Shown piece after piece: positions 23,246 through 46,105 of a stretch of 64,000 nt of DNA. Location: contig NZ_JAFCUW010000005.1 of assembly GCF_049896725.1 (NCBI RefSeq), positions 296,515 to 360,514 on the forward strand, read 5' to 3'. This DNA comes from Massilia sp. PWRC2. GTDB lineage: Bacteria > Pseudomonadota > Gammaproteobacteria > Burkholderiales > Burkholderiaceae_D. The position numbers and the translations under genes are program-made. The stretch's first letter is position 1. Each line of letters opens with the position of its first letter. The notes beneath the pieces were generated by a model, which saw only the letters and a list, made by a program, of their open reading frames with translations, was not told the DNA's origin and searched no databases.

Positions 23246-26200
23246 ATGGCAGGCGCGATTCGAACTTTTTTGCAGGCGGTCCGGGCCCACCGCGTGGCCT
23301 GGCGGCGATCGCGCAACCTGCAGCGCAGGGGGCCAGCGGTGCGCCCTTCAGTCAAGGCCGCCGCCGCAGTGGCTACTGCTGCCGCGCTGCGCCCGGCGCG
23401 CCTGCCGGCTGGCAGTGCCGCGTGGTGGATCAGTATGGCCGGCGTGCTGGCCGCCAGCGTCGGCGCCGTCGTCATCGTCCGCCATGCACACAGCCTGGCG
23501 CGCGCGGTCGAGCTCACCAGCGCGCCGGCGGCGGGTGTCGTGCGCCCGCTAGCAGCATTTCAGACCCTGCTACCGGGCGCCGCCCTGACGGTGCCGGCCG
23601 ATGGCAGCATCGAGGTGCTGCAGCGCGGCAGTGCCAGCGTGCTGGTGCTGGGCGCCGGCACCCGCGCCGCGCCGCTGCTGCGCATCGACCTGTGCCAGCA
23701 GCTTGGCAGCGCCAGCCCGGCGGCGCGGCTCCCCATGGTGCCGCTGCGGATCGGCTACCCGTTCGCTGACGTCGTCCGCTGGGCTGGCGCCGGCGCCGCC
23801 CCCGCGCTGCGCGCAGTGGTACTCGGCAGCGCCGACAGTGCGATGCCGAAGGTGCGCATCAGCGGCAATCCCGGCGTGACCGGCGAACCCCTGCAGCTGC
23901 GCTGGGAGGGCGCCAGCGCCGCTACCAGCTGGGTTGGTGCCGCTGCCGCTGCCGATGCCAATGCTGGCAACGCCGGCGGCGAGCACGGCGCAGTTGCCTT
24001 CCATGGCGACGGCTGGCTGGTCTGGGGCGCAGCCGCGATCCACTTTCAGCGCCAGGGACAAGCGCCATCGGCGCCGGGCGGCGGTCGCTGTGGCGCCGGC
24101 CAGTTGCTGCTGCAAGTGGTGCGCGGCGGCGCCACTGGCACCACTGGCACCACTGGCGGCACTGGCGTTGGCGGCGCGCGCGGGCAAATCACGGCATATG
24201 CGCGCGACAAGGCGTCGGCGTCGCTGTCGGCCTGGCTGGCGCCGGGCGATTACCAGGTCGCTGGCGCCGCCGCCGCCGATCTGGAAGACCACGCCTTGTT
24301 CACGCAATTGCGCGCGCGCGGCATGCTGCGGCTGGGCGCCGGCGGGCTGGCCGAACTGGCGCCACGCGACCTGCCGGCGTGGCGCGCCGCACCGGCGCCG
24401 GCGCGCGCGGCCGAACTGGCCAGCTGGGACGCGGTGCAGTTCGATGACGGCGCCCGCAGGCTCTACAAGCACCTGTACCGCATGGCCGATGGCGCCTACC
24501 TGCGCGAACAGCTACGTATTTTTAATGGTGAGCAGCATCTGCTGGCATGGCGCCTGCCAGCGTCGGCCGCAGCGTCGGCCTGGCAGGCCGAAGTCGCTGG
24601 CGAGCGCGCCAGCATCAGTACTGCCATGCCGGCGGCGGCGACGCGCCTGTTTGCCGGCGTCGCCCCGGGCTGGCAACCCTGGCAGCGCATCGAACGCTGG
24701 CCGGCCGCCGCCGCCGCCGGAGCGGTGCGGCTGACCCTGAACGTCACGCCGGCTGCCGTTAATGCACCGATTGAACTGATGCTGATCGGCCGCGCCAGCG
24801 CCGTCACTGGTGCCGTCATCCGCCAGCGCCGCGCCGTCTGCGATGGCCGCGCTTGCGCTGGGACTGCTGCTGGCACTGGCACTGGCGCCGACGCCGCCCA
24901 GCTGCTGCTGCTCGATGTGTTGCCGGGCGCGCGCAGCGTGTCGCTGGCGGTGGCGCCGCTGGACATGGCCGCGCTGGCGCAGCCGGCCGACCAGCAGTAC
25001 CGCCACCTGCGGGTCACTGACGGCCAGCTTGACTGGCAGCCACTGGCGAGCGCCGCGCCGGTGTCGCCAGCTGCCAGCACCGCCGCTTCAGCCGGCCCCG
25101 CCGGCCCCGCCGGTCCCGCCGGCCCCATCGCGCTGGTCGACCGCAACGGCGTCTCCCTGTGGGCCGATGGCGCCCCCAGTGCCGCTGCCAGCGCTGCCGG
25201 CCTGGCGCCGTTGCTGGGCTTGGGCGCCGATCACACCAGCAGTGTGGCCGGCATGCTGGCGCGCCTGCCGCCACCGGCGCCGGGCGCCGGCCACCATGCC
25301 CGCCTGAGCCTCGATCTGGCCCTGCAGGCGGCCAGCAACGGCGCCGTCGACTGCATCGGCATGCGTCACGGCCGCTGGGATGGCGTCAGCTGCACAGGGG
25401 CCCAGCCGGTGCCGCCCGGCCGCCATGCGGGCATGGTCATCATCGACGCCGAAAACGGCGACATCCTGGCCGCCGCCGGCGCCGGGGGCGTGGCCGTCAA
25501 TGCCGCCAACTGGCTCGAGGTGCGCAATTTCGACCGCAGCGATCCGGCCCGCAGCCCGCTGCGTCTGCCCGCCCTGCAGCACGATGGCGGCGCCCACGCC
25601 AGCCCTGGCTCGACCTTCAAGGTGATCAGCGCGCTGGGCCTGGAGCAGGCGGCGCAGGGCGATGCCCGCCTCGACGCCCTGCTGGCCGGCCAGCCGCTGG
25701 CCGACATCAATCGCCTGGCGCGCCAGCACGGCTTTGCGTTCGATACCAGTGCCGCCATCTATCCCATGCAAGAGCGCAGCGCCCACATCACCAACTACCA
25801 GCGGCAAAGCCTGGAGCGCCACGCCGCCAATGGCCGGCTGGGGCTGGCGCAGGCGCTGACCTTCAGCCAAAACACCTGGTTTGCCTGGCTCGCTGAACTG
25901 AGCGACGGCAGCCTGTTTGGCCGTGCCGATGGCGGCGTGCCCGACCTGCAGGCGCTCGAGCCGGGCGCCCTCGATGCCGTGCGGCCGATTGTCGGCATGG
26001 CGCGCCGGCTGGGCTTTGGCACGGCGCTGCGCCTCGATGGCGGCCTGTTGCCAGCCGATTTTCGCTGGGGCCAGTGGGATGCCCTGCAGGCGAGCGCATC
26101 GAACATCGACCCGGTGCACAGCCGCCACGAACTGCGGCAGATGGCGATCGGCCTGCGCATGCAGGTCACGCCGCTGCAGATGGCGCTGGCCGCCGCCGCC

Positions 26201-26614
26201 GTCGGCCAGGGCAGTGTGGTGGTACCGCGCCTGCTGCTGGCACTGGACCAGCGCGCGGCCAGGCCAGCGGCCGCGCAGGCGCTCGGCGTGCGCCTCGAGC
26301 GCATCCGCGCCGGCATGAAAGGGGTGGTCGATGTCGGCACCGCCGCCAGCGCCTTTGCCGATGTGCGCCTCGCTGGCGTGCGGCGCGGTCTGTTTGGCAA
26401 AACCGGTACCGCCCCCACCGGCGACGGCAGCGCCGCCACGGTCTGGTTCACCGGCTGGCTGGAAGCGGGCAGCCTGCCAGGGCAGACGCACCGGCTGGCG
26501 CTGGCGGCGTTTGTCAGCCACTCGGCGGGCAGCGGCGGCGAACATGCGGCGCCGATGATCGCTGCGGTGCTGGCGGCCAGCGCCGGCGAGAAGCCCAAAC
26601 AGAGGGGTAAATAG
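23246..26614 (+). CDS. Large membrane-anchored protein with a C-terminal class-B penicillin-binding-protein transpeptidase domain and a novel N-terminal region of about 750 aa.
   Basis: In the C-terminal 340 aa the motifs run in order: MVIIDAENGDILAAAG, SxxK (STFK), SxN (SQN), the PBP signature QVTPLQMA...GQGSVVVP, then KTG(T). There is one N-terminal TM (AAWWISMAGVLAASVGAVVIV). The N-terminal region has internal low-complexity repeats (TGTTGTTGGTG, GPAGPAGPAGP). Confidence 0.8.
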   Translation: MAGAIRTFLQAVRAHRVAWRRSRNLQRRGPAVRPSVKAAAAVATAAALRPARLPAGSAAWWISMAGVLAASVGAVVIVRHAHSLARAVELTSAPAAGVVRPLAAFQTLLPGAALTVPADGSIEVLQRGSASVLVLGAGTRAAPLLRIDLCQQLGSASPAARLPMVPLRIGYPFADVVRWAGAGAAPALRAVVLGSADSAMPKVRISGNPGVTGEPLQLRWEGASAATSWVGAAAAADANAGNAGGEHGAVAFHGDGWLVWGAAAIHFQRQGQAPSAPGGGRCGAGQLLLQVVRGGATGTTGTTGGTGVGGARGQITAYARDKASASLSAWLAPGDYQVAGAAAADLEDHALFTQLRARGMLRLGAGGLAELAPRDLPAWRAAPAPARAAELASWDAVQFDDGARRLYKHLYRMADGAYLREQLRIFNGEQHLLAWRLPASAAASAWQAEVAGERASISTAMPAAATRLFAGVAPGWQPWQRIERWPAAAAAGAVRLTLNVTPAAVNAPIELMLIGRASAVTGAVIRQRRAVCDGRACAGTAAGTGTGADAAQLLLLDVLPGARSVSLAVAPLDMAALAQPADQQYRHLRVTDGQLDWQPLASAAPVSPAASTAASAGPAGPAGPAGPIALVDRNGVSLWADGAPSAAASAAGLAPLLGLGADHTSSVAGMLARLPPPAPGAGHHARLSLDLALQAASNGAVDCIGMRHGRWDGVSCTGAQPVPPGRHAGMVIIDAENGDILAAAGAGGVAVNAANWLEVRNFDRSDPARSPLRLPALQHDGGAHASPGSTFKVISALGLEQAAQGDARLDALLAGQPLADINRLARQHGFAFDTSAAIYPMQERSAHITNYQRQSLERHAANGRLGLAQALTFSQNTWFAWLAELSDGSLFGRADGGVPDLQALEPGALDAVRPIVGMARRLGFGTALRLDGGLLPADFRWGQWDALQASASNIDPVHSRHELRQMAIGLRMQVTPLQMALAAAAVGQGSVVVPRLLLALDQRAARPAAAQALGVRLERIRAGMKGVVDVGTAASAFADVRLAGVRRGLFGKTGTAPTGDGSAATVWFTGWLEAGSLPGQTHRLALAAFVSHSAGSGGEHAAPMIAAVLAASAGEKPKQRGK

Positions 26615-26695
26615 GGGGCTGACGTGCGGCTGCCCGGGCGCCAATCTGTGGCATGATTTCCATGCGCCCGTCATGGGCATTGGAACGGGGAAGGT

Positions 26696-28027
26696 ATGCG
26701 TCTGCCGGGAACACGGTATCAGGAACACGGCTGGGAACTGGTGCGAAAACTGTTGGGGCAGTGTTCGTTGCAGGCCTGCGCCGCTGGCCTGCCCGCACGG
26801 ATTGTCAACGTCAACGTTAACAACAGCGCCAGCGCCGCGCTGGCGGACTGCCTGGACGACTACATCGAGCGTTGCAGCGGCGCCTTGCGCGCCAGCGCCC
26901 GCCAGCCACGCGCCGCCGCCGATGGCAACAGCTATGGCGAGAGCGTGCTGGAACTGGCGCTGGCGCTGCTGTGCGAGCTGCAGGCGCGGCCAGCCGACTG
27001 GCACGCCCTGGCGGCGGCGCTTGGCGCCGACGCGGCCCGTCTGGGCCATTTCTGGCAGCAGCCCGGCGGCGAGGCCATGCTGCGCAAAAAATTCAACGAT
27101 ATGTATGCGCTCCTGCGCGACAAGGTCGATTGCGACAATTACATCGTCGCCTGCGGCCGCCCGTGCAGCGCCAACCGCATGTACGCTTACCGCATGCTCG
27201 ACACCGCATATGCCGACATTGCCCGCCTGTTCGACAGCTGGCGCGAGGCGCCCGAGCAGGTGGCGGCGATTCTAGGGCGCGCCGTCGATGCCGCTGCCGC
27301 CCCCATTGAAGTGCGCCAGATGAAGTCGATCGGCGACTGCCAGGCGGCGTGGCTGATCGCCTGGAGCGCCTCGCGCGAGCGCTTCACCGGTGCCGCTGGC
27401 CCGCTGCACACCCACTCGAAGCGTTTTGCCAATTTAAAAAACAGCCCCGATAAAATCGCCGCCATGCTGGCGGAAATCGGCGACTATGAACAACTGTCGG
27501 CCAACGGCGACGGCCCGTGGCAGCAGGATGCCGCCGACGCCAGCGCCTGGCTGGACGATCTGGCGCGGGTGTTGGACGACGCGGTCGATGATGACGGCGA
27601 TGGCGGGCGCGTGCTGGCCCGGCCCGCCGCCGCCGCCGCTGCCGATGCCGATGCCGATGCCGATGGCGCCGACCACAGTGCAGCGCGCAGCGCACTTTCA
27701 GCGCCCCCCAGCTACGTTTCAGTGGCGCTGCTGGCCGGCGACGCTGCTCTCTGGGCGGCGCGGGCGATGGCCGGCTGTTCGCTGCCGGTGCAGCTGGCGG
27801 TCTATTTGAAGCTGGTCGGGGCACGCGACGACTGCTACCGGGCCGAATGGCTCGACGGCGTCAGCGGCGAGCTGCCCACCATGGCCCAGCTGGCGGCCCT
27901 CGACGGCGTCTCGCTGCCAACCCTGCGCAAGCGGCGCGACAGTGCCATCGCGGCGCTGCAGGCCGGTACGCAGGCCGGGCCGCGGCCGGGCGGCGGCACC
28001 GATGAACCAATCAGGAGAGCACAGTGA
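26696..28027 (+). CDS. Hypothetical protein with a C-terminal sigma-70 region-4-like HTH.
   Basis: The 443 aa sequence ends in ...ELPTMAQLAALDGVSLPTLRKRRDSAIAALQ, which resembles sigma-70 region 4. Its stop overlaps the next start (ATGA-type coupling at 28024). Confidence 0.5.
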   Translation: MRLPGTRYQEHGWELVRKLLGQCSLQACAAGLPARIVNVNVNNSASAALADCLDDYIERCSGALRASARQPRAAADGNSYGESVLELALALLCELQARPADWHALAAALGADAARLGHFWQQPGGEAMLRKKFNDMYALLRDKVDCDNYIVACGRPCSANRMYAYRMLDTAYADIARLFDSWREAPEQVAAILGRAVDAAAAPIEVRQMKSIGDCQAAWLIAWSASRERFTGAAGPLHTHSKRFANLKNSPDKIAAMLAEIGDYEQLSANGDGPWQQDAADASAWLDDLARVLDDAVDDDGDGGRVLARPAAAAAADADADADGADHSAARSALSAPPSYVSVALLAGDAALWAARAMAGCSLPVQLAVYLKLVGARDDCYRAEWLDGVSGELPTMAQLAALDGVSLPTLRKRRDSAIAALQAGTQAGPRPGGGTDEPIRRAQ

Positions 28028-28617
28028 ACAAGCGGGTAAGCGATTCATCCACCCTGGCGCGCAAGCTCGCTGGCGCGGCGCTGCTGGCGCGCCGCGTCGA
28101 CGGTGATTATCTGGTGCTCAGTGACGCCACCTTGTGTGCGGCCATCGATGGCAGCTGCCCCTTGCGCAGCGCCGAAGCGCAGGCGCTGGCGGGCTCGCCG
28201 TTGACTTTGCGGCGCCTGCGCCTGCTGGCCGATGGCATGCGGGCGACGCCGTGGAGCGCCAGCGCCGGCATGCTGCGCGCTGCCGCCAGCGCTGACAGTT
28301 CGATGGCAGTCCTCGAGACCGACGACGGCCACTGGGCGCTGCACTTTGTTTTGCAGGATGGCCAGTGGCAGCTGGTGCTCAAGCTCGACGCCGCCGCGCC
28401 GTTTGCCGCCCGCCTGCTCGCTGGCGACGGCGCGCCCTTCATCGAAGTGCGCGACGGCGCCGGCGGCCTGCTGCTGCAGGGACGCCTCGATGGCGACGGC
28501 GAATGCGAACAGGCGTGGCCATGCGCGCTGGCGCCAGCCTTGCATTTCCAGCAGCACGGGGCGCGCTTTACGGTGACGCCGGTGACCCTGGTGGCGCCGG
28601 CGGGGCCGGCGCGATGA
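28024..28617 (+). CDS. Hypothetical protein (197 aa).
   Basis: Coding statistics and GC3 support it. It is translationally coupled to its neighbours, with stop/start overlaps at both ends. No recognisable domain. Confidence 0.5.
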   Translation: MNKRVSDSSTLARKLAGAALLARRVDGDYLVLSDATLCAAIDGSCPLRSAEAQALAGSPLTLRRLRLLADGMRATPWSASAGMLRAAASADSSMAVLETDDGHWALHFVLQDGQWQLVLKLDAAAPFAARLLAGDGAPFIEVRDGAGGLLLQGRLDGDGECEQAWPCALAPALHFQQHGARFTVTPVTLVAPAGPAR

Positions 28618-29783
28618 TCGAGCTGGCCAGCCGCTGGTGGCAGCGCTCGCGCCGCGCCGCGCCGCCCGACAATGCAGCGCTGGGCGAGAGCGTGCTGGCC
28701 ATCGCGGTGCCCGCTGCCAGCGTGCAGGGCAGCGCCTGCGATGCGGTGCTGATCGCCGGTGGCGGCCGCAGCCGCCGCAGCAGCGCTGCGGCGCCGCTGG
28801 CGCCCGAGCCGGACGAGACGGCCTGGCTGTTTCACCCCGGTCCCTACCACTGCGTGCTGCGGCCCTTTGCCGCCGCCCCCGAGCTGGGACTGCAGCTGTG
28901 CTTTGTCATCGATGGGTCTGACCCGCGGCTGGCGCAGCAGCGCTTTGACCTTTACCTGGCCAGCGAAGTGCAGGGCAGCGCGGTGGTTCTGGCGCTGGCG
29001 CCGTTTTGCGCCGCCCTCGAAGCGGCGCTGCAGCAGCAATTGACGCAAGGACAGCTGGAGCTGCCGCCTTGCACCAGCGTGGCCGAATGGAACCGCTTTC
29101 GCGCTGGCCTGAACCGCCTGCTGTACCAGCGCTTTGGCGTGACGCTCGACGATTGCCTGCCGGTCGATCTCGGTGACCGCATTGATTTTGCCGCCATGCT
29201 GGCCGCGCGCGTTGCCAGTGCACCAAAAGCGCAGCAGGATGCCGAAGTGGCGCCTGCAGCGGCGCCAGCACAATCACAATCACCAGCACCAGCACCAGCA
29301 CCAGCACCAGCGCCGGCCGCCGTCGACGCCGCGGCCCTGCGCCGCCTGTTCCTCGAGCTGCCGTGCCTGACGGCCGCGCTGCGCGCCGCCGTGCTGCAAG
29401 ATGAGACGATGGCGGCGAACACGGCGCAAACTGCGGCGCTCGATGGGTCCCCGCAATTCCGCCGCCAGCAGGCACTGTGGCGTCGTCTTGACCTGGTTAA
29501 CTTGCAGGTCAGCACCATGCCGGCGCTGGCGCTCGCTGCGCCCGGGCTGGCGCTCGGCCGCAGCGAGCAGGCGCGGCGTGCCCGCCACAGCCAGCGCGCC
29601 TGCGCTGCGCTCGACGATGGCTGGGCGCTGCTGGCCCGGCTGGACGGCACTCCCCGCCGCGCCGCCGACACTGCCGCCGCTGCCAGCGACGACGCCGAGC
29701 GCATCGTCGCCAACCTCGAATTCGATCTGCAGGAACGGCGCGCGATTGCCGCGCCGGACAGCGGCGAGATGGCAGCGTCATGA
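28614..29783 (+). CDS. Hypothetical protein (389 aa) with a PAPAPAPA linker.
   Basis: It starts at MIELASRWW (an ATG overlapping the upstream stop). No recognisable domain. Confidence 0.5.
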   Translation: MIELASRWWQRSRRAAPPDNAALGESVLAIAVPAASVQGSACDAVLIAGGGRSRRSSAAAPLAPEPDETAWLFHPGPYHCVLRPFAAAPELGLQLCFVIDGSDPRLAQQRFDLYLASEVQGSAVVLALAPFCAALEAALQQQLTQGQLELPPCTSVAEWNRFRAGLNRLLYQRFGVTLDDCLPVDLGDRIDFAAMLAARVASAPKAQQDAEVAPAAAPAQSQSPAPAPAPAPAPAAVDAAALRRLFLELPCLTAALRAAVLQDETMAANTAQTAALDGSPQFRRQQALWRRLDLVNLQVSTMPALALAAPGLALGRSEQARRARHSQRACAALDDGWALLARLDGTPRRAADTAAAASDDAERIVANLEFDLQERRAIAAPDSGEMAAS

Positions 29784-30811: not shown

Positions 30812-30917
30812 AACTCGTCCCTGCGCGCGCCCTGCTAGAATCGGAGGGCGGCGCGGGCAATGCAGGGCAGGGCAAGCCTGCTTCGATAGCGCCAACTGAT
30901 GAACCGGGAGCAGGTAT

Positions 30918-33083: not shown

Positions 33084-33092
33084 CAGGCCACG

Positions 33093-35426: not shown

Positions 35427-35460
35427 GGGCGCGCCACCCACACTTTTTTCAGGCACCCAC

Positions 35461-36408: not shown

Positions 36409-36510
36409 ATGCACATCCCGCCCAAGCTGCACATTCCCATGACCGTGTTCACCCTGCTGGCCATCATGCTGGCGGGTTTTGCGCTGATTTTCCTGGTGCT
36501 GGCACCGTAA
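36409..36510 (+). CDS. Candidate 33-aa single-TM small protein (MHIPPKLHIPMTVFTLLAIMLAGFALIFLVLAP), absent from the ORF track.
   Basis: An ATG has a GGAGG 6 nt upstream. The product is a hydrophobic helix, in an intergenic gap between convergent genes. Confidence 0.3.
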   Translation: MHIPPKLHIPMTVFTLLAIMLAGFALIFLVLAP

Positions 36511-36522
36511 AGGTACGCCAGC

Positions 36523-38070: not shown

Positions 38071-38170
38071 GACGGCGTTATAAATTCCTCAGGTTTGCCA
38101 GCTTACCCCCAAACGGTGCAGTTACGGCAAAGCAATACATTTGCAGTGTAACATTTGTTTCCATGCGAAC

Positions 38171-39202: not shown

Positions 39203-39227
39203 GGATTGGTTCCTGCTAAAGGCCCGA

Positions 39228-40481
39228 TTAGAGGGGGTTTTCCCGCTTGCCCAGCCACAGCGCGATGGCGTTGACGATCACGCAGGCACCAGCAACTGCC
39301 AGCGCCGCCTGCACGCCGAGATGGTCGGCCAGGCGTCCCCACACCAGGCTGCCGACGGTATAGCCGCCGGCCATGACGAACAGGTAAATCGACAAGGTGC
39401 GCGCCCGTATGTGGATGGGGAATGAGGACTGCGCGGCAGCATTCAGGGTCGACACCACTGCCGACCAGGCCATGCCGCCACACAGCACCAGCGACAGCAG
39501 CACCGGTAGCGAGCGCACACAGGCCATGGCGATCAGCATCACGCCATAGACCAGCAGCGCGCAGCTGAGCAGGCAGCGGCGGTCGTAGCGGCAGCGCAGG
39601 CTGGGCAGCAGGAAGGCCGCCAGCACGGCGCCGCAACCGAGCGCGCCCATCAGGGTGCCGAACACGCTCGAATTCATGTGCAGCACGTCGCGTACGAATA
39701 CCGGCAGCAGGCTGGCAAAGGCGATCGTGGCAAAGAACACCGTGCACACGTTGCACAGGATGTGGCGGTAGCGCGGGCAGCCGAAGGCGCAGGCCAGGCC
39801 CGCCTTGAGGCTGTCGGCAAAGCCAATGCTGGCGATCACGGCCGGCCGGCCTTCGCGCCACCACGACCAGTACACCGTCAGCAAACCAATGAAGGAGATG
39901 GCATTGACGAAAAACAGCACGCCGGGGCCGATCCAGCTGAACAGCACGCCACCGAGGGCGGGACCGATGACGGCGGCGACGTTGTAGCTGAAGTTGTTGA
40001 GGGTGGCGGCCGCTTCCACTTCATCGGGCTCGACCAAGCCGGATATGGCCGCCTGCCAGGCCGGCCACATGAAAGCCGAACCGGCGCCCAGGCAAAACGT
40101 CAGCGCCAGCACCGGGCTGGCCGAGACGTGGCCGGTCAGCACCAGGCCGGCCAGGGTGCAGGCGCACAGGGCCATGAACAGATTGCAGTAAAACAGGAAG
40201 CGGGGGCGGTCGACGGCATCGGCCACCACCCCGGCGATCAGCGCGAACAGAAAGATCGGTACGTAACTGGCGGTCTGCACCAGCGAAGTGGTCGAGGCCG
40301 AATGCGACATCGAAGCGATCATCCAGGCCGAAGCGAAGGTCTGGATCCAAGAGCCGAGATTGGAGAGCAGGTTGGCGCACCACAGGTGGCGGTAACGCAC
40401 GTGGCGCAACGGCTGCGTCAGGGGGACCTTATGACGCACGGTACGCGCGGGCAGGGGGGCGGTGGCGCTGTCTTTGGACAT
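39228..40481 (-). CDS. MFS transporter.
   Basis: A 12-TM protein with an EntS/efflux-like N-terminus, starting at MSKDSAT. Confidence 0.85.
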   Translation of the reverse strand: MSKDSATAPLPARTVRHKVPLTQPLRHVRYRHLWCANLLSNLGSWIQTFASAWMIASMSHSASTTSLVQTASYVPIFLFALIAGVVADAVDRPRFLFYCNLFMALCACTLAGLVLTGHVSASPVLALTFCLGAGSAFMWPAWQAAISGLVEPDEVEAAATLNNFSYNVAAVIGPALGGVLFSWIGPGVLFFVNAISFIGLLTVYWSWWREGRPAVIASIGFADSLKAGLACAFGCPRYRHILCNVCTVFFATIAFASLLPVFVRDVLHMNSSVFGTLMGALGCGAVLAAFLLPSLRCRYDRRCLLSCALLVYGVMLIAMACVRSLPVLLSLVLCGGMAWSAVVSTLNAAAQSSFPIHIRARTLSIYLFVMAGGYTVGSLVWGRLADHLGVQAALAVAGACVIVNAIALWLGKRENPL

Positions 40482-40656
40482 GCACCCGAGTCTACGGTGC
40501 GGGCGCGACACTGGTCAATGCTTGATGGAATTAATTGTGACTGTCGGGTATGAACGTTGTAGCGCGGCCATGTCGAAACGCCATGCAGCTTGGCGTGCTG
40601 CTATCGAATAAACCAATCATATGAATGATAATGACCATGGCATGGCGGTGCGATCC

Positions 40657-41130
40657 TCAGCGTTGGCGCGCGTGCGCTTCTTCTGCGCGCCGCAACCACA
40701 GGCTGCTGACCCAGCCGTCGAGCTGGCGCTGGCCGATGCTGGCGCGCACCTGCCACCAGTCGCCTGCGCGCACGCCGGTGGTGGTGACCGTTGCGCCGGC
40801 CGGCACCAGCGCCAGGCGCGCGCCATCGATGCTGGCGCTGGCGCGCAGATTGAGGTCGTCGAAGGCGCGGTAGCTGGTGCGCTGATACGTCGGTGGCGTA
40901 CTCGCAGCGGCGCTGCGCGCGGCGGCTTGACCGGCCAGCTGTGCTGGCGCTGGCGCCGTGGTCGGTGGCGCCAGCGCCAGTAGCGCACTGCCGATGCCCC
41001 AGCTGCCCGCCGCCACCAGCGTGATCGCTTTCAGATTGGGGCGGCGCCACCAGTGTGCTGGCGTGCAGACCGAGGCCAGCGCCAATGTCAGCACGAAGGC
41101 GGCGGCGAAGATGGCAAACAGGTAGCCCAT
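40657..41130 (-). CDS. Membrane-anchored bacterial SH3 (SH3b) domain protein.
   Basis: An N-terminal TM is followed by an SH3_3-like segment (YRAFDDLNLRASASIDGARLALVPAGATVTTTGVRAGDWWQVRASIGQRQLDGWVSSLWL). Confidence 0.6.
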   Translation of the reverse strand: MGYLFAIFAAAFVLTLALASVCTPAHWWRRPNLKAITLVAAGSWGIGSALLALAPPTTAPAPAQLAGQAAARSAAASTPPTYQRTSYRAFDDLNLRASASIDGARLALVPAGATVTTTGVRAGDWWQVRASIGQRQLDGWVSSLWLRRAEEAHARQR

Positions 41131-41139
41131 GTGCCTGCC

Positions 41140-42753
41140 TCAGGCGTCGAAACGCAGCACGTAGTGACCGGCCACCAGGTGGTGCCCGGGCGGCAGCAGA
41201 TACGGCGCGGCGCCGTCGAGGGTGGCGACGAAATCTAGCCGGGCGTCGAGGTGATAGAGCGCCTGGGTGGCAGCGAGCCGGCCGATCTGAAAGCCGCCGG
41301 CGGTGGCCTCGAAACTGAAGGCATTGCGCGACAGGCCGATCCGGTCGGCGCTGGCGCTGTCATCGGTGAGCCCAGCGGCGCTGCGCACGAAACGGGGCGA
41401 GTCGAGCACGCGCAGGGCCGCCAGCATGGGGGCGCCACGGCCGAACACAAAGCGGGCGCCGCCGGGTACCGGTAATCCCGGCGGGTTCGACAGCCTGGGC
41501 TGCGCCGGCAAGATCAGCAGCGCGCAATAGCGCTCGGCCATGGCGGCGGCGACGCTGGCCAGGCCGATGCTGGCGCCATCCATCGGGCTGAAGCTCGACG
41601 GTACGCTGATCGCTTCGCGGCCGGCGGCGGTGATCGCCATCAGCGCATCGTTGCCATCGACGGCAAAGCGGATCACCGCTTCGACCCCGGGCGCGGCCAC
41701 CGCCAGCTGTTCGTCAAAACCAATTTCGAGGGCGGCGGCGCCGGTTTCGCGGTAGCGCGACAGGCGCGGCAGGGCCAGCGCGGCCAGCGTCACGCGCTGG
41801 CCGGCCAGCGGTGCATACGTGGCATCGGCGCTGTCAAGCGCGCCAGCGCCGCGCGCGGTCGCGGGCGCCGCCGCCAGTGGCAGCGCGGTGGCGTCGCTCG
41901 CTGCCGGTACCTCGGCGCTGCTCGCTGCCGCTGTCTCTGCGCCGCGCTGCTTCCAGACTGTGGCGGCACGCGCGGGCGCGCCTGCGCTGGCGGCGCTCGC
42001 AATCGGCGCACGCGCCGGCGCCGGCGCCCCCAGCCGGGTCACCTTGAGCAGCAGGCGGCGCGCCGGCGTCAAGCCAGCCTTCGAGCGGATTACGTAGTAG
42101 CCGCCCAGCGGATCGAAACTGCAGTCGAAGGCTTGCTTGGGCCGCACTTGCACTTCGAGGGGAGCGTCGGCGCCGTCGTTGATCAACAGGATGGCCGGTT
42201 CACCGTTGCTGCCACCGGCAGCATCGGCAGCATCGGCAGCATCGGTAGCAGCGGCACCCACCAGCGCCAGCCGCTGGTTCTGGTAGATCGGGCACCGTGT
42301 CTGCCAGATCGCGCTGTCGCTGGAGGTGGCGACCTGGTAGAGCACCGCTTCGCCGGCCGCTGGCAGATAGACGGCGTGGCCGAAGCGCACTTCGACCTGG
42401 CCCGCTGCGAGCGACTCGGCGCCGACGACGTCGTAGCGCACTTCGTCGTTGCCGAGCAGGTCGCCGAAATCCTTCTGGTGCAGCGCCGCTAGCGAAGCGG
42501 CCAGGTCGCGCACGCGCGCGCCGCGCGTGAGGTGGCGGTCATCGTCGACGTCGTCCTGCGGCAGCATCAGGGTGATGTGCGAAAAGCAGCGGGTGGCAGC
42601 GCGCCCGCGCTGCTCGCGTGGCGAGCGCTCGAGCAGGTCGCGCAGCAGCGGGCGGCGCGCAAACAGCGCCAGGCCGGGCGCCTGCCACAAGGCTTCGGCA
42701 TTAAAGACGTCGGCCACCTTGCCTAGCACTTCGTGTTGTACGTAGACGGGCAT
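41140..42753 (-). CDS. Hypothetical protein (537 aa) co-operonic with the FHA-SEDS gene, possibly with a degenerate FHA-like C-terminus.
   Basis: The proposed start MPVYVQHEVLGK at 42753 has the RBS GGAG upstream and overlaps the SEDS gene's 3' end. There is a 9-bp repeat encoding (DAA)n. The C-terminal FVFGRGA...LSRNAFSFE segment is FHA-like, but this is a weak call. Confidence 0.5.
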   Translation of the reverse strand: MPVYVQHEVLGKVADVFNAEALWQAPGLALFARRPLLRDLLERSPREQRGRAATRCFSHITLMLPQDDVDDDRHLTRGARVRDLAASLAALHQKDFGDLLGNDEVRYDVVGAESLAAGQVEVRFGHAVYLPAAGEAVLYQVATSSDSAIWQTRCPIYQNQRLALVGAAATDAADAADAAGGSNGEPAILLINDGADAPLEVQVRPKQAFDCSFDPLGGYYVIRSKAGLTPARRLLLKVTRLGAPAPARAPIASAASAGAPARAATVWKQRGAETAAASSAEVPAASDATALPLAAAPATARGAGALDSADATYAPLAGQRVTLAALALPRLSRYRETGAAALEIGFDEQLAVAAPGVEAVIRFAVDGNDALMAITAAGREAISVPSSFSPMDGASIGLASVAAAMAERYCALLILPAQPRLSNPPGLPVPGGARFVFGRGAPMLAALRVLDSPRFVRSAAGLTDDSASADRIGLSRNAFSFEATAGGFQIGRLAATQALYHLDARLDFVATLDGAAPYLLPPGHHLVAGHYVLRFDA

Positions 42754-45125
42754 GATTGCATCTCCTCGAAAGTTTGCGCGCTGATCGCAGTAAACGCTAG
42801 CAGGGGGCAGATGAAAAACAGCAGGTGGCTGCCGCCCGCCGACAGAAAGCTCATGGGCTGGCCCATGATGGGAAAGATCGATAGATTGGTGCCCCATGAC
42901 AGCAGCAGGTGACCGAGCACGAAGGCGGCGCCGCCGCACAGGGCAAAGCAGCAGAAGCGCCCCAGCCAGGCCTGGCGAAAGTCACGCGCTGCCTGCGCCG
43001 CCGCATGGGCGCGCGCCGCCACCTGCAGCACCCCAGTGAGGAACAGCGCCTGCAGCAGCCACAGGACGAGGGCCGCCGCCAGGCCGTGGCGGTAGAGGAA
43101 AAACGCCGGCGCGAAATCGTCCTGGACCTGGGGGATGCGCAGGGCGGCGCCGCCATCCTGGCCCAGGCTGGCCACGCCCAGCAGATGATCTTCACCCCAC
43201 CAGCCGCCGGCGGCAATCGCGCGCGCGCCTTGCAGCAGTTGCTGGCCCGTGTGCGGGTGGCTGGCCGGGTCGAGCCAGACCAGGAAGCGGTCGGCATAAA
43301 AACTCCAGCCGGCCACTTCGCCAGCGCCGGCGAGGCGCAGCCAGACGATGGCCGCCACAGCCGCCAGCGCCAGAGCGCCGATGGCCGCCACCGCCAGGCG
43401 GCTGCGCGCACTCAAGGCCCAGGCAAAGGCCAGCGCCGTGCTCCACACCAGCAGCAGGATCAGCGGCGAGTAATCATCGACTTCCAGCAGCGCCAGCATC
43501 AGCAGGGCGGCAAACAGCAGCGCCGGCGCCGCCAGCCGGCACCAGCGCCACAACGGGTGGCTGTGGACCGGCATGGCCACGGCCAGCGGCTGATACCAGC
43601 CCATGCCGATCGCCAGGCAGTGCGCCGCCAGCGCGCACAAGGCGAGCTTGGCCAGTTCGACCGGCTGCAGGTCGAATACCCCGGTTTCGTCACCGAACAG
43701 CACCTGGGCCGCCAGCGCCAGCAGGGCCACCCCGGCCAGCAGCAGCAGCAGCCATTCGAGGCGGCCCTGGCTGATCAAGCCCGGCCGGCCCAGCCAGCGC
43801 AGGCGCAGGTGGGCGCCCACCCCCAGGCCGATTGCCAGCAGGGCAGTGCTTTTCTGGTAGTGGCGCAGCCACGACGATTCTTGCGCCGCCAGTCCCAGGT
43901 CGAGCTGGGCCAGCAGACCGATGGCCAGCAGCAGCGCGGCGGCGGCGCTGGCCAGCTGCAGGCGTGCCGGCAGCAGCAGTAACGAAAACAGGGCGGCGCA
44001 GCCGAGCAGCACCGACCAGCCGACGCCGGGCGCCGTGCCGGCACGCTGCAGCAGCAGCGCGCCAAGGCCGGCGATGGCCAGCAGGGCGCTGGCGGCGGCG
44101 CCGCTGGCCAGCGCCAGGCTGGTGGCGCCCGCTTCGAACGGCCAGCGGCCACGCTGCCAGGCCTGCGCCAGCCACACCACCAAGGCGGCGCACAACGCTG
44201 CGGCAATACCCCAGGCGGACCCGCCCGGCAGCTGCCACAGCGTGCGCGTGCGCCATTGCCAGCGCACTGCTGACGGTAAGGGCGCGGCGCTGTCCTGTGC
44301 ATACAGGGCGACGTGGCCGAGCGGGCGCAAGCTCAGGGTGGCGCCATCGACATGGGCGGCAAAGCGGGTGTGGCCAGCGACGATCGACGTTACAGCATCG
44401 AGGCCGTCGGCGCCATCGAGCCACTGGCGCTGCTGCGCCAGGGCGAAGCTGGCGCCGCTGGCCGGCATCATGGTGACGCCGCTACCGGCCAGCAGCAGGC
44501 GGCCGTGGTCGATGGCCAGCCCGGCGAGCGCCGCGTCGATACCGGCGATACCGAGCCGGTTGCCGCAATACAGATTGCCGCCAAAGACCAGCGGCCGCGC
44601 CAGCGCCAGCGCCGCGGGCAGCAGCCGGTTCCACCAGCCTAGCGCCCGCGCTGCCAGCGTGGCGTCGGGGCAGGCTGGCTGGGCGGCACCGGCGCGCAGC
44701 AGTTGCGCACCATCGTACTGCCAGCTGCCGCCAGCGCCGTGAAAGCCGATGCTTTGTTCGCCGGCGTGGTCAACCACGAAGCGCGCCGTGCCCAGCGCAA
44801 AAGCGTCACCGGTTGCCAGCGCGATGGCGCCACTGCGCTGGTCGATGCCGCCGCGCTGGATCAGCAGCTGGCGGCTGGCGCTGGCGTTGGCCAGCGACCA
44901 GCGGCCGTCGGCGTCGCGCTGCAGATCGAGGTGGGCGCGGTCGGCCTGGGGCGCGGCCAGTTCGCGCGCGCCCAGCGTGAGCTGCTGGCCCGGCGCCAGG
45001 CGGATGTCGATGCGTTCGGGTGAGGCCAGCGCCGGCGTCCGGGCGAGCGTCAACCACTGCAGGGCGCACAGCAGCGCCAGCGCCAGGCCGACGACGGCCA
45101 GCCGTGCAGGTAGCGGGGCCTTCAT
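42723..45125 (-). CDS. SEDS-family (FtsW/RodA/SpoVE-like) peptidoglycan glycosyltransferase with an N-terminal FHA-like domain.
   Basis: The C-terminus carries the SEDS signature (IPQVQDDFAPAFF ... IFPIMGQPMSFLSAGGSHLLF). There are more than 10 TM segments. The N-terminal FHA-like segment after the first TM reads LTLGARE...AHLDLQRDADGRWSLANASASRQLLIQRGG...GDAFALGTARFVV. The ATG overlaps the stop of the upstream kinase gene. Confidence 0.78.
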   Translation of the reverse strand: MKAPLPARLAVVGLALALLCALQWLTLARTPALASPERIDIRLAPGQQLTLGARELAAPQADRAHLDLQRDADGRWSLANASASRQLLIQRGGIDQRSGAIALATGDAFALGTARFVVDHAGEQSIGFHGAGGSWQYDGAQLLRAGAAQPACPDATLAARALGWWNRLLPAALALARPLVFGGNLYCGNRLGIAGIDAALAGLAIDHGRLLLAGSGVTMMPASGASFALAQQRQWLDGADGLDAVTSIVAGHTRFAAHVDGATLSLRPLGHVALYAQDSAAPLPSAVRWQWRTRTLWQLPGGSAWGIAAALCAALVVWLAQAWQRGRWPFEAGATSLALASGAAASALLAIAGLGALLLQRAGTAPGVGWSVLLGCAALFSLLLLPARLQLASAAAALLLAIGLLAQLDLGLAAQESSWLRHYQKSTALLAIGLGVGAHLRLRWLGRPGLISQGRLEWLLLLLAGVALLALAAQVLFGDETGVFDLQPVELAKLALCALAAHCLAIGMGWYQPLAVAMPVHSHPLWRWCRLAAPALLFAALLMLALLEVDDYSPLILLLVWSTALAFAWALSARSRLAVAAIGALALAAVAAIVWLRLAGAGEVAGWSFYADRFLVWLDPASHPHTGQQLLQGARAIAAGGWWGEDHLLGVASLGQDGGAALRIPQVQDDFAPAFFLYRHGLAAALVLWLLQALFLTGVLQVAARAHAAAQAARDFRQAWLGRFCCFALCGGAAFVLGHLLLSWGTNLSIFPIMGQPMSFLSAGGSHLLFFICPLLAFTAISAQTFEEMQSCPSTYNTKC

Positions 45126-46105
45126 GCGATGGCCTGCTCGCGCGCCCGCCTGGCTGGCGCCATTGCGGCGGCCAGCAGGCGGGCAATCGCCAGCGCATGC
45201 GGCGGCCGCGCCGCTGGCTGCGGTGCCAGCAGGGTGCGCAGCAGCAGCAGCGCATGGCCAGCTGCGCCGCGTGCGGGCAAATCGTCACAGTGGCGCACGA
45301 ACAGCGCCGCTTCGTCATCGGCCAGGGTGTGGCAGGCTGCGGGCTGGTTTGCCAGACCGTGCTGCTGGCGCCAGGCCTGGGCCGCATCGATGCAAAAGCG
45401 CAGTGGCACGCCACCCGTGATCAGGTAGTACAACAGGGCGCCCAGCGTAAAATAATCGGTGGCGGCGCAGGTGACGTACCCGCTGCCGTCGTGGCCGGCC
45501 GTGGCCGCCCACAGCTGTTCCGGCGCCTGCCAGTGGGGAGTGCCGGCATAGGGATGGGGAGCGCGGTCGGCCAGCGCCCGGCTGGTACCGAAATCGGCCA
45601 GCTTGAGGGTGGTGTCGCGTGCGCCTCTGCTGAGCAACAGGTTCGAGGGTTTCAGGTCGAGGTGGCGGCGGCCGTACTGGTGCACCTTGGCCAGCGCCTG
45701 GTTGACCTGGCCGATCCACACCAGGGCCTGCAGCGGATCGACCGTGCTGCCGGCGGCGCGGCGGCATGCGACCCAGGCGCCAAGATCGCCGCCGAGCAGC
45801 TCGAGCGCCAGCACCGGCAGGCCGGCGTCGACGCCGCTGTCGAGCAGGCGCACGATGTGGCGGCCGTCCCACGGCGCCAGCTGGCGCAGGAAGGCCAGTT
45901 CGTCGTGGGCACCGTCGATCCAGCGCTGGCGCTGGTCAGGGACGGCCTGCACCATCTGCGCCTGGTTGACAAATTTGAGGGCCACCGCCGGCCCGGCCGG
46001 CAAGCGGGCGGCGCGCCATACCAGGCCGTAAGCGGAACTGGCCAGCGGCGCGTCGAGCCGGTAGCTGTGTGACGCCAGTGTAATAATGGTTCCTGCTGCC
46101 AGCAT
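45122..46105 (-). CDS. Hanks-type Ser/Thr protein kinase (no PASTA domains).
   Basis: The kinase motifs VALKFV, HLDLKPSNLLL, DFGTSRA and GTPHWQAPE are present. The start is MLAAGTII at 46105. Its stop overlaps the SEDS start (ATGA). Confidence 0.85.
   Translation of the reverse strand: MLAAGTIITLASHSYRLDAPLASSAYGLVWRAARLPAGPAVALKFVNQAQMVQAVPDQRQRWIDGAHDELAFLRQLAPWDGRHIVRLLDSGVDAGLPVLALELLGGDLGAWVACRRAAGSTVDPLQALVWIGQVNQALAKVHQYGRRHLDLKPSNLLLSRGARDTTLKLADFGTSRALADRAPHPYAGTPHWQAPEQLWAATAGHDGSGYVTCAATDYFTLGALLYYLITGGVPLRFCIDAAQAWRQQHGLANQPAACHTLADDEAALFVRHCDDLPARGAAGHALLLLRTLLAPQPAARPPHALAIARLLAAAMAPARRAREQAIA

Follow-up and report, generated by a model that had tools for sequence, protein, structure and literature searches.

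Our analysis points, with moderate confidence, to an accessory peptidoglycan synthase, regulated separately and under the control of Ser/Thr phosphorylation, as the product of a gene cluster at positions 23246-46105 of a 64-kb window (the whole stretch of 64,000 nucleotides analyzed) from Massilia sp. PWRC2. This reading draws on sequence comparison and modeling; the core enzymes would be a divergent SEDS glycan polymerase and a class-B-like transpeptidase, accompanied by a cytoplasmic protein of 537 aa. The analysis recovered the component set named in the original prediction, namely two Hanks kinases, a PP2C phosphatase, an FHA protein, a SEDS protein and a class-B-like transpeptidase. The cluster further holds an SH3b protein and a zinc-ribbon/SPFH protein, and one of the kinases is a kinase-FGE fusion. 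The coordinates matched GC3-supported ORFs. Rather than three transcription units, as first proposed, the genes form two convergent strings, (+) 23246-36360 and (-) 46105-36523, with overlapping start and stop codons inside both, and the cluster is flanked by ordinary metabolic genes. The features are as follows.

23110-23217, + strand: candidate control region 5' of the PBP string (conserved motif and direct repeats)
23246-26614, + strand: class-B-like PBP, 1122 aa, membrane-anchored (PF00905, 58 bits)
26696-28027, + strand: 443-aa cytoplasmic protein, first of four coupled ORFs (ORF call)
28024-28617, + strand: 197-aa protein, start overlapping the preceding stop (GTGA; ORF call)
28614-29783, + strand: 389-aa protein, start/stop overlap (ATGA; ORF call)
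29780-30811, + strand: 343-aa protein with invariant G-x-S249 ... K295 (alignment including the distant locus L091)
30918-33083, + strand: zinc-ribbon/SPFH protein, 721 aa, cytoplasmic (two zinc ribbons and Band_7/SPFH)
33093-35426, + strand: kinase-FGE fusion, 777 aa, soluble (Pkinase 124 bits; FGE-sulfatase 198 bits)
35461-36360, + strand: pirin gene, variable insert
36523-38070, - strand: FHA protein, 515 aa, cytoplasmic (FHA domain ~295-410)
38171-39166, - strand: PP2C-type Ser/Thr phosphatase, 331 aa from the ATG at 39166 (PP2C_2 28.8 bits, cut-off 24)
39228-40481, within the - string: MFS_3 transporter gene, variable insert
40657-41130, - strand: SH3b membrane protein, 157 aa, two TM helices (SH3_3 36 bits)
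41140-42753, - strand: 537-aa cytoplasmic partner of the SEDS/PBP pair (homologues adjoin PBP-SEDS in distant loci)
42723-45125, - strand: SEDS glycosyltransferase, 800 aa, distinct family (N-terminal FHA-fold domain and SEDS core)
45122-46105, - strand: Kin2, 327-aa soluble Hanks kinase, non-RD ('HLD'; Pkinase 87 bits)

The MFS_3 and pirin genes were present in 23 and 41 of 65 related loci, respectively. The candidate control region of the PBP string combines the motif TTTYC-N7-8-CCCYCYGCTAR (23110-23134), which was found again in most of 26 related upstream regions, with direct repeats. These are five 11-nt copies of CGCTGTTTTAA at 23163-23217 (TRF score 82); this tandem repeat was observed in the window alone.

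Alignments and models showed that the SEDS and class-B-like PBP proteins keep every catalytic residue and carry large extra domains predicted to be periplasmic. The PBP consists of a cytoplasmic Arg-rich tail, a TM helix (60-78), approximately 560 aa of beta-rich periplasmic domains without assignment and a transpeptidase module (~640 to 1110). The predicted class-B transpeptidase domain was confirmed, with SxxK, SxN and KTG invariant among 46 homologues, and the closest structures were those of class B PBPs; Pfam detected no pedestal domain. The N-terminal part of the SEDS protein comprises TM0 and, at ~30-300, a periplasmic FHA-fold domain plus another beta domain that bears a conserved pair of Cys residues. 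Its C-terminal part holds the SEDS core of 10 TM helices (391-791), preceded by three extra ones (303-384). The family is small, with 410 matches among 1.84 billion representatives. The FHA domain originally described at the SEDS N-terminus is thus present as a fold but not as a phospho-reader: helix parity and charge bias predict a periplasmic placement, and the phosphate-binding Ser is missing. The domain therefore cannot hard-wire the polymerase to phospho-Ser/Thr signaling, as had been proposed for the SEDS-PBP pair. The likelier links are cytoplasmic and involve the 537-aa protein, through its FHA-like C-terminus, and the 515-aa FHA protein.

Analysis of the 537-aa protein predicted no TM segment and revealed an N-terminal domain, a linker rich in Ala and Pro that carries the conserved motif D-A-T312-Y-A-P, and, at the C-terminus, an FHA-like module in which G438-R439 and S475-R476 are invariant. 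None of 28 family members gave a Pfam match. A trimmed hhalign comparison of this C-terminus with the SEDS FHA-fold domain gave E = 1.2e-3, and the FHA-like assignment is weak (hhalign E = 1e-3 to 0.04). The A-T-Y motif of the linker was kept in kinase-linked lineages (Oxalobacteraceae and the distant locus L088) and was lacking from L085, L086 and L091, which have no kinase close by. The 515-aa protein, which matches with 100% identity an NCBI entry from Massilia sp. PWRC2 annotated 'FHA domain-containing protein', contains an N-terminal Cys/His knuckle, a middle domain without assignment, the FHA domain and a C-terminal domain. Its original FHA call stood at the family level; the protein itself gave no Pfam match, but PF00498 was matched by 25/34 family members, and G309-R310 and S340-x-x-H343 were invariant among 101 homologues.

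Both kinase calls were upheld by their Pkinase matches, and both proteins are soluble, with neither TM segments nor PASTA repeats, the latter as previously noted. The 777-aa kinase is built from a SHOCT domain (25.5 bits; gathering score 27), the kinase domain, a coiled coil and an FGE-sulfatase-like (C-type-lectin-fold) domain from which the FGE catalytic cysteines are absent. K127, HRD222-224, N229 and DFG were invariant among its 62 homologues, none of which had a TM segment (0/62). Kin2 is the first gene of the (-) string and its stop overlaps the SEDS start; the start at 46105 is a conserved Met, as read before, and K82, D188, N193, DFG and APE were invariant among 76 homologues. The phosphatase was also correctly called, with a partial match to NCBIfam Stp1_PP2C (E = 7e-12) and metal-binding Asp motifs (DGMGGH, GDSR, DG, DN) invariant among 93 homologues; only its start was moved, from 39202 to 39166.

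Among the other partners, the 157-aa protein has two TM helices (4-22 and 35-53) joined by a basic loop, and its C-terminal SH3b domain is predicted to lie in the periplasm. The 721-aa protein has no TM segment and is ordered as zinc ribbon, SPFH/Band_7, long coiled coil and zinc ribbon (Zn_Ribbon_1 28.8 bits; Band_7 26.7 bits, cut-off 23.6; DZR 23.1 bits). For the four coupled ORFs, the 443-aa protein had no Pfam, NCBIfam, PADLOC or PDB-profile match, the 197-aa and 389-aa proteins had no family match, and the 343-aa protein had neither Pfam nor PDB support. The C-terminal stretch of the 443-aa protein can be read as helix-turn-helix-like, and by eye S249/K295 of the 343-aa protein resembles a Lon-type Ser-Lys dyad.

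Synteny marks the cluster as a core locus in all Oxalobacteraceae loci long enough to test (65/65 and 23/23). Each of the six (-) core genes was found in 63-65 of 65 genome loci (Kin2 and SH3b in 65, PP2C and the 515-aa FHA protein in 64, the 537-aa protein in 63). Five of the seven (+) core genes, including those for the 443-aa, 197-aa, 343-aa and 721-aa proteins, were present in 23/23 metagenome loci of 20 kb or more, and two in 19/23, one of these encoding the 389-aa protein (at ≥60% coverage). Inheritance is vertical, with the same housekeeping flanks across genera, and the locus is not a variable island. The PBP, SEDS and 537-aa triad recurs in scattered, distant bacteria at 24-36% identity, and 537-aa homologues adjoin PBP-SEDS in L085, L087, L088 (full length, 30% identity) and L091. 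The predicted link of the synthase pair to Hanks kinases also reappeared at a distance: a Kin2 homologue (34% identity) lies divergently upstream of PBP-SEDS in L088, a kinase-FGE fusion directly follows PBP-SEDS in L089, and a kinase-PEGA fusion lies directly beside SEDS in L090. Lytic transglycosylases (MltA, SLT, SLT-LysM) are encoded by adjacent genes in both L088 and L091. In L091, the genes upstream of the PBP include homologues of the 197-aa protein (full length, E = 2.7e-18), the 343-aa protein (E = 4e-12) and the zinc-ribbon protein (its N-terminal ribbon region matching a 242-aa protein, E = 2e-5), and a weak collinear 389-aa match (E = 0.014). At least two, and probably three, of the four coupled ORFs accompany the triad in this one distant lineage. 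The related loci and L091 identify these ORFs and the 537-aa ORF as real, conserved members of the cluster and not passengers, in line with their original inclusion. No kinase was found within the fetched flanks of 4/7 distant contexts, and control by kinases may therefore be an addition peculiar to certain lineages.

It is very improbable that the SEDS and PBP are simply the host's own RodA/PBP2 or FtsW/FtsI in an unusual location. The SEDS family profile is nearest to FtsW (68.7 bits) and RodA (44 bits), and the PBP is structurally like FtsI and PBP2; however, scores against the NCBIfam equivalogs fell far under the cut-offs (SEDS, 56 and 55 bits for FtsW and RodA, cut-offs ~337; PBP, 61 bits for PBP2, cut-off 455), a single-sequence search with the SEDS matched no PDB SEDS, and this protein has extra TM helices and extra domains. 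Neither protein has a dcw, mre or mrd neighborhood, and the earlier view that they are not canonical orthologues stands. Across 185,579 species genomes, the SEDS family turned up at only 391 loci, whereas canonical SEDS-PBP pairs are, to our knowledge, near-universal; presumably Massilia sp. PWRC2 has separate canonical rodA/mrdA and ftsW/ftsI. We give almost no credence to a T6SS control module (PpkA/PppA/Fha, TagE/TagG type) lying near wall genes by chance, a case raised in the original prediction. The trio of domain types is identical, but no T6SS structural genes were present in the 64-kb window or any related locus examined, the cluster kinases lack the PpkA vWA domain, and the kinase/PP2C/FHA trio co-varies with SEDS/PBP across genera.

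BlaR1/MecR1 sensor domains detect beta-lactams, and a transpeptidase-fold domain that detects beta-lactams or muropeptides in this way is one form of an unlikely, though not negligible, reading in which the PBP-like and SEDS-like proteins serve mainly as envelope sensors or a drug-insensitive bypass and not as a regulated morphogenetic synthase. The bypass form would provide PBP2a-style resistant cross-linking in beta-lactam-exposed soil bacteria; in either form the kinases would transduce or license the response. There is only a slim chance that the cluster serves conflict or anti-phage defense (of the abortive-infection type) by remodeling or damaging the envelope upon infection, with kinase, SPFH and protease-like parts as sensor and effector. 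Conflict systems include SPFH, zinc-ribbon proteins and FGE-like domains (PMC7159879), caspase-FGE genes lie near the module in L088, and a cluster kinase matches the PADLOC kinase models PD-T4-6 and mad6. These PADLOC matches are, however, generic to the kinase domain, and no other cluster protein matches; the locus is syntenic and vertically inherited between constant housekeeping flanks, and its conserved partners are wall enzymes (PBP, SEDS, lytic transglycosylases, SH3b).

On sequence grounds, the best reading is that the cluster is an analogue and not an orthologue of the actinobacterial fhaA-fhaB-pstP-rodA-pbpA-pknA-pknB locus (Mycobacterium, Corynebacterium, Streptomyces), and the statement that it holds exactly this set did not survive. 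In Massilia, the SEDS and PBP come from families of their own that have diverged deeply and carry extra domains, the kinases are soluble and lack TM and PASTA segments, the genes run in two convergent strings that place the PBP 16 kb away from the SEDS, at least six further conserved proteins are encoded, and the host is a Gram-negative betaproteobacterium. The pair shares its two folds and catalytic residues with RodA-PBP2 and FtsW-FtsI (PDB 8tj3, 6pl5, 8bh1), and PBP and SEDS genes are directly adjacent in its distant relatives. In contrast to those pairs, the SEDS has 14 TM helices instead of 10 plus a ~270-aa periplasmic domain, the PBP has ~560 extra periplasmic residues, and the cluster has a dedicated cytoplasmic FHA-like partner and lacks MreBCD, RodZ, FtsQLB or dcw context. 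The sporulation-specific SEDS-bPBP pair of Firmicutes, SpoVE-SpoVD, resembles the proposed system as a third pair given to a conditional wall-building programme; the Massilia SEDS differs in domain architecture and scored only 27.9 bits against NCBIfam SpoVE (cut-off 448.8), and we know of no sporulation in these Massilia-related genera. A 2025 survey of morphogenetic synthases described non-canonical SEDS/bPBP genes that have Ser/Thr kinase and phosphatase genes as neighbors, for example in Pedobacter ginsengisoli, Senegalimassilia faecalis and Streptomyces coelicolor, alongside intact canonical pairs and including PBPs without an annotated pedestal (PMC12516126). The synthases described there are fusions (GTase-GTase-TPase, TPase-PBPA_dimer-GTase) from other phyla, and Massilia is not mentioned in the survey's main text. 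We found no account of this SEDS family or cluster in the literature, consistent with the original view that it is not a described system.

In the phosphorylation-gated synthase that we favor, the triad of Oxalobacteraceae would be embedded in a Ser/Thr phospho-switch. The two soluble kinases would act on Thr residues in the cytoplasmic portions of the complex, the best candidate phosphorylation site being the conserved A-T-Y-A-P motif of the 537-aa linker, and the non-catalytic FGE/lectin-like domain of one kinase may bind a ligand, the trigger possibly being a cytosolic, cell-wall-derived one. The 515-aa FHA protein and the FHA-like 537-aa C-terminus would read the marks and assemble or activate the synthase, and PP2C would reset the switch. 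Positioning on the sacculus may involve the SEDS periplasmic FHA-fold/beta domains, the long PBP N-terminal region and the SH3b membrane protein, with the zinc-ribbon/SPFH protein as a putative membrane scaffold and the four coupled proteins as probable parts of the system. Its purpose would be conditional wall synthesis apart from elongasome and divisome, such as repair or remodeling; the originally suggested role in cysts, resting cells or a polar structure is conjecture. Kinase-flanked synthases are already known; what appears to be new is a divergent SEDS/PBP pair with added domains, conserved in Massilia and relatives. If the accessory-synthase reading is true, these bacteria may have a separately regulated route to build or repair the Gram-negative cell wall.

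Analysis of the region spanning 23246-46105 confirmed, with corrections, the original prediction of a cell-wall synthesis gene set joined to Ser/Thr-kinase signalling components. The cluster consists of two convergent gene strings, one per strand, in DNA with a GC content of 65-73%. The open reading frames (ORFs) proposed for it were backed by codon-position GC over many overlapping spurious ORFs, and the 515-aa minus-strand protein was 100% identical to a 'FHA domain-containing protein' of Massilia sp. PWRC2 (Oxalobacteraceae, Betaproteobacteria). The flanks comprise ordinary metabolic and transport genes, and no dcw, mre, mrd or T6SS genes were found in the window.

Genes of the cluster
23246-26614, plus strand: PBP, first gene of the plus string
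26696-30811, plus strand: four coupled uncharacterised genes (443-, 197-, 389- and 343-aa products), stop/start overlaps GTGA or ATGA
30918-33083, plus strand: zinc-ribbon/SPFH protein, plus string
33093-35426, plus strand: kinase-FGE fusion, plus string
35461-36360, plus strand: pirin, end of the plus string, at the convergence point
46105-45122, minus strand: kinase 2, first gene of the minus string
45125-42723, minus strand: SEDS polymerase, minus string
42753-41140, minus strand: 537-aa protein, minus string
41130-40657, minus strand: SH3b protein, minus string
40481-39228, minus strand: MFS_3 transporter, inside the minus string
39166-38171, minus strand: PP2C phosphatase, minus string
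38070-36523, minus strand: 515-aa FHA protein, last gene of the minus string

Scores above the Pfam cut-offs were obtained for both predicted kinase domains (124 and 87 bits) and for the predicted FGE-sulfatase (198 bits), transpeptidase (PF00905, 57.9 bits), FTSW_RODA_SPOVE (PF01098, 68.1 bits versus a gathering score of 26.4), PP2C (PP2C_2, 28.8 bits versus a cut-off of 24) and SH3_3 domains; Band_7 and Zn_Ribbon_1 also exceeded their cut-offs in the cluster. The two predicted FHA domains gave no Pfam FHA match on the window sequences alone, but were supported by other evidence.

The SEDS protein carries the 10-TM SEDS fold, and 26 of 34 family members matched PF01098. Residues Q487, P488, E490 and D670 were invariant in the family and K493 was present in at least 90%; these catalytic-motif residues align with QPSEIAK and TDF of Pseudomonas aeruginosa FtsW, with D670 as the loop Asp. 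A single-sequence search against all PDB sequences gave no match, and the family profile reached FtsW with 68.7 bits and RodA with 44 bits. Identity as a canonical FtsW or RodA orthologue was nevertheless rejected: the protein scored 56.5 bits against an NCBIfam equivalog cut-off of 337.5 for FtsW and 54.7 bits against 336.7 for RodA, and it has no dcw or mrd context. The class-B-like PBP, whose transpeptidase motifs SxxK, SxN and KTG (STFK789-792, S874-x-N876 and KTG1052-1054) were invariant in 46 sequences, was likewise rejected as a canonical PBP2 (MrdA) orthologue (61.5 bits versus the TIGR03423 equivalog cut-off of 455). The canonical SEDS-bPBP pairs are presumably encoded elsewhere in the Massilia sp. 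PWRC2 genome. When 1.84 billion representative proteins were searched exhaustively, only 410 SEDS relatives were recovered at E <= 1e-3, most of them 760-890 aa long and sharing the N-terminal extension; exact look-ups gave no record for the window SEDS sequence or for P0161, a homologue of the window PBP. The PBP model (pLDDT 77.5) comprises a cytoplasmic basic tail, one TM helix, approximately 560 residues of beta-rich domains without an assigned fold and then the transpeptidase module. No pedestal (PBP dimerisation) domain was detected by Pfam; alignment lengths of 360-403 residues, compared with approximately 285-292 for constructs holding the transpeptidase only, suggest that part of a pedestal may be present.

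In the SEDS model, a helix at the N-terminus (5-29) is followed by a beta-rich region (33-294) and thirteen more long helices. The FtsW alignment begins at approximately residue 394 and QPVELAK (487-493) marks the start of SEDS TM4; therefore the helices at 391-791 are the ten canonical TMs. Those at 303-384 are three extra TM helices beyond the canonical ten. An FHA beta-sandwich fold is present at the N-terminus, for which Pfam returned only Yop-YscD_cpl (E = 0.007) and no FHA match. By helix parity, residues 30-300 lie outside the cytoplasm, and parity combined with the K+R bias in 34 sequences positions the FHA-fold domain between two inward-facing segments, the N-tail and a loop. Across the 34 family members, net charge alternated from loop to loop as expected.

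Net charge of SEDS segments
N-tail: +1.5
a-b loop: +2.0
b-c loop: -0.2
c-d loop: +1.2
TM2-3 loop: +2.4
ECL2: -1.5
ECL4: -3.1

Within the second beta subdomain, the near-invariant cysteines C152 (31/34 sequences) and C187 (32/34) would fit a periplasmic disulfide. No conserved Ser, as in Ser-x-x-His, was found three residues before the conserved His in the FHA-fold domain of the family. On the basis of helix parity, loop charges, the Cys pair and the missing Ser, this domain is most likely a periplasmic, phospho-independent module. Its predicted site and the missing Ser contradict the earlier proposal that an FHA domain wires the polymerase to the kinases.

The signalling enzymes retain their active-site residues. 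The catalytic Lys, the catalytic-loop Asp/Asn and DFG were invariant in 62 homologues of the kinase-FGE fusion and 76 homologues of kinase 2, and D83, D165, D266, D312 and N313 of PP2C were invariant in 93 homologues. While the 515-aa window protein itself gave no Pfam match, PF00498 was matched in 25 of 34 close homologues (best E = 3e-7) and G309, R310, S340 and H343 (Gly-Arg, Ser-x-x-His) were invariant in 101 sequences; the protein has no real TM segment and is recognisable as an FHA protein via its homologues. No TM segment was present in any of the 62 Oxalobacteraceae kinase-FGE fusions. We take the C-terminal ~250 residues of the fusion to be an FGE-like domain without both catalytic FGE cysteines ('YLRSSLRN', 'GFRLA'); as judged from its sequence, this is most likely a cytoplasmic ligand-binding domain. 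In a bacterial kinase atlas, the 'Proteo1' family includes an FGE-sulfatase architecture, and the text of the atlas makes no mention of FtsW, SEDS or transpeptidase.

The 537-aa protein encoded next to SEDS is predicted to be soluble; its N-terminal domain and its C-terminus are both conserved and are joined by a variable linker rich in Ala and Pro. None of its 28 family members matched Pfam. G438-R439 and S475-R476 were invariant in 28 sequences, distant members included, and this GR/SR pattern in the C-terminus resembles that of FHA phosphothreonine-binding loops. Trimmed hhalign comparisons of the C-terminus gave weak matches to the SEDS FHA-fold domain (E = 1.2e-3) and the 515-aa FHA protein (E = 0.036); these came from trimmed domains only, and the full profile gave no FHA match to the 515-aa profile. 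The sole conserved island in the linker is D-A-T312-Y-A-P (residues 310-315), which is present where a kinase gene adjoins (the Oxalobacteraceae and the distant locus L088) and lost where none does (L085, L086 and L091). We propose T312 as a candidate phospho-threonine site.

A genome scan with the SEDS family alignment identified 391 loci, the best 80 of which were all from Oxalobacteraceae (Massilia, Duganella, Rugamonas, Telluria, Zemynaea or relatives). Among 65 loci of at least 20 kb, kinase 2, SEDS and SH3b were each present in 65, PP2C and the 515-aa FHA protein each in 64 and the 537-aa protein in 63; the MFS_3 gene (23/65) and pirin (41/65) are variable inserts. Plus-strand genes were counted in 23 metagenome loci of at least 20 kb centred on the 343-aa gene. 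This analysis revealed the PBP and the 443-, 197-, 343-aa and SPFH proteins in 23 of 23 loci each, and the 389-aa protein and kinase-FGE fusion in 19 each; the metagenome scan with the 343-aa family recovered close relatives only. An M28 peptidase flank was retained in 62 of the 65 loci, and the upstream neighbours psd, HD and RVT_3 were the same in Massilia sp. 9I. The cluster belongs to the vertically inherited core of these genomes rather than to a mobile island. The HD-domain gene overlaps the RVT_3/RNase H-like gene (window 20128-21649, minus strand), and in Massilia sp. 9I the pair is retained upstream of PBP beside a WXXGXW-repeat gene (window 21796-22563). A second pirin gene lies at window 16017-16958 (minus strand).

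More distant SEDS relatives, at 24-36% identity, were found in contexts with a GC of 40-71%; one of these distant members, L090, carried a taxonomic label ('Deltaproteobacteria' MAG).

Gene arrangements at distant loci
L085, L086: [590-603 aa protein]-[PBP]-[SEDS]
L087: PBP-SEDS; upstream gene cut at the contig end, product like the 537-aa C-terminus
L088: kinase 2 homologue (34% identity) divergent from PBP-SEDS-[610 aa protein]; then MltA, with SLT farther
L089: PBP-SEDS-[kinase-TM-FGE fusion]
L090: [kinase-TM-PEGA]-SEDS
L091: five small genes, SLT-LysM, PBP, SEDS, 485-aa protein

The ~485-610 aa proteins of L085, L088 and L091 and the truncated upstream gene product in L087 are homologues of the window 537-aa protein, with 30% identity over the full length in L088 and two collinear matches in L085 (E = 3e-6 and 5e-6). 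The distant PBPs are homologous to the window PBP (L088, 33% identity over residues 58-1109). PBP, SEDS and the 537-aa protein form a conserved triad. Hanks kinases and lytic transglycosylases turn up beside it repeatedly, but not in every context. The L089 FGE and L090 PEGA domains come after the TM segment and would be extracytoplasmic. When the five upstream L091 genes were compared in order with the window plus-strand proteins, matches were obtained for the 197-aa protein (E = 2.7e-18), the 389-aa protein (weak, E = 0.014), the 343-aa protein (E = 4e-12) and the zinc-ribbon N-terminus of the SPFH protein (E = 2e-5); the 443-aa protein had no match among them. These ordered matches indicate that the interleaved unknowns belong to the system, and thus bear out the original prediction of uncharacterised partners as components. 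The L088 module is followed by a caspase-like protein (Peptidase_C14) with an FGE-sulfatase fragment adjacent to it, and by another protein of the caspase-FGE type (15484-17650 and 21408-22403). A MamC (magnetosome) gene at 7803-8168 of L090, 1 kb from SEDS, hints at a magnetotactic host. A metagenomic protein of 1105 aa, P0377, contains FTSW_RODA_SPOVE and Transpeptidase in one SEDS-PBP fusion and matched the distant SEDS profile weakly (E = 3e-4); excerpts of a 2025 survey of morphogenetic synthases report fusions of this kind (PMC12516126).

Single-sequence Pfam, NCBIfam and PADLOC scans of the four coupled unknowns and the 537-aa protein gave nothing, as did domain scans of their distant homologues and profile searches of the 515-, 343-, 443- and 537-aa families against PDB sequences. 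A helix-turn-helix reading of the 443-aa protein was unsupported by Pfam, NCBIfam, PADLOC or PDB-profile searches. Residues 247-300 of the 343-aa protein (29780-30811, plus strand) contain G-x-S249-x-x-L-A-x-V-M-A-D-R ... W-x-x-G-R-V-x-x-V-E-x-x-x-x-K295, a motif invariant even in the L091 homologue (22% identical). By eye the S249/K295 region resembles the Ser-Lys dyad of Lon-type (S16) proteases; database searches gave no support for a Lon-like reading.

Five tandem copies of the 11-nt unit CGCTGTTTTAA (23163-23217, 84% matches) stop 29 nt before the PBP start codon and were not seen upstream in 25 related loci; their one-helical-turn spacing suggests a candidate regulator-binding array. A non-coding motif, TTTYC-N7-8-CCCYCYGCTAR (23110-23134), lies approximately 110 nt upstream of the PBP start in the window and upstream of PBP in most of 26 Oxalobacteraceae loci, and may be the promoter or operator for the plus-strand genes. 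A sigma-70 consensus scan of the 23110-23134 region found nothing, consensus scans for promoters and terminators gave nothing informative at three boundary regions, and Rfam returned upstream of PBP only a sub-threshold COG2908 RNA (19.6 versus 58.7 bits; minus strand, 23040-23095). A TGCGAC box is located near 23051-23057. Divergent from the PBP gene is an ORF of ~94 codons (22698-22982, minus strand) whose N-terminus looks like a signal peptide; related loci conserve the DNA around its start codon, and Massilia sp. 9I has a 71-aa gene at the same place.

Several described systems were weighed against these data. The cluster would work like the actinobacterial fhaA-fhaB-pstP-rodA-pbpA-pknA-pknB locus; however, gene order and strands differ, both Massilia kinases are without the PASTA domains and TM segment of actinobacterial PknB, and there is no orthology, with the Massilia SEDS and PBP far from the canonical families. 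With order, orthology and a PASTA receptor kinase all missing, the cluster is an analogue of that locus rather than an instance of it. A T6SS PpkA/PppA/Fha (TagE/TagG) module was rejected, with no T6SS structural genes in the window or in the related loci examined. Among known anti-phage systems, PADLOC matched only generic kinase models at the kinase domain, with a sub-threshold match of PP2C to PDC-M21C (E = 6e-4) and no match for eight other cluster proteins; membership of a known defence system was not supported. The vWA-ternary conflict systems (PMC7159879) were rejected because the cluster has no vWA, MoxR or STAND components. Excerpts of the 2025 survey describe surplus bPBPs in many Burkholderiales and some non-canonical SEDS/bPBP proteins flanked by Ser/Thr kinase and phosphatase genes, one kinase-flanked case being the Gram-negative Pedobacter ginsengisoli, which its authors call a novel phenomenon worth investigating (PMC12516126). 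The same excerpts contain no FHA-fold SEDS family, 537-aa partner, kinase-FGE link or four-gene module, and none of the other papers found describes them.

Taken together, sequence, predicted structure and gene neighbourhood favour an accessory, phospho-regulated peptidoglycan synthase as the best-supported reading, which we regard as reasonably probable. A broader reading is tentative and, taken jointly, rather unlikely. It holds that SEDS, the long PBP and the 537-aa FHA-like adaptor would form an unrecognised third SEDS-bPBP class scattered across Proteobacteria, recurrently coupled to Hanks kinases and lytic transglycosylases, that would insert or repair peptidoglycan apart from the elongasome and divisome. 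In the Oxalobacteraceae, a soluble kinase would act as the on-switch, its lectin-like FGE domain sensing a product of wall turnover in the cytosol, and the four-gene module would supply new dedicated accessory factors of the class.

Two SEDS-bPBP machines and class A PBPs normally account for wall growth in Gram-negative bacteria, and Ser/Thr-kinase control of wall synthesis is mainly Gram-positive and actinobacterial. The third pair has its own architecture, with 14 TM helices, a predicted periplasmic FHA-fold domain and a very long PBP, and is predicted to have its own cytoplasmic adaptor and a full kinase, phosphatase and FHA switch. This pair is a constant feature across several genera of common soil and rhizosphere bacteria and appears again in lineages unrelated to them. 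If functional, it would allow phospho-regulated peptidoglycan synthesis to be studied in a tractable Gram-negative model, might offer a route to beta-lactam tolerance or to repair of the envelope, and would give several conserved uncharacterised proteins a defined context for study.
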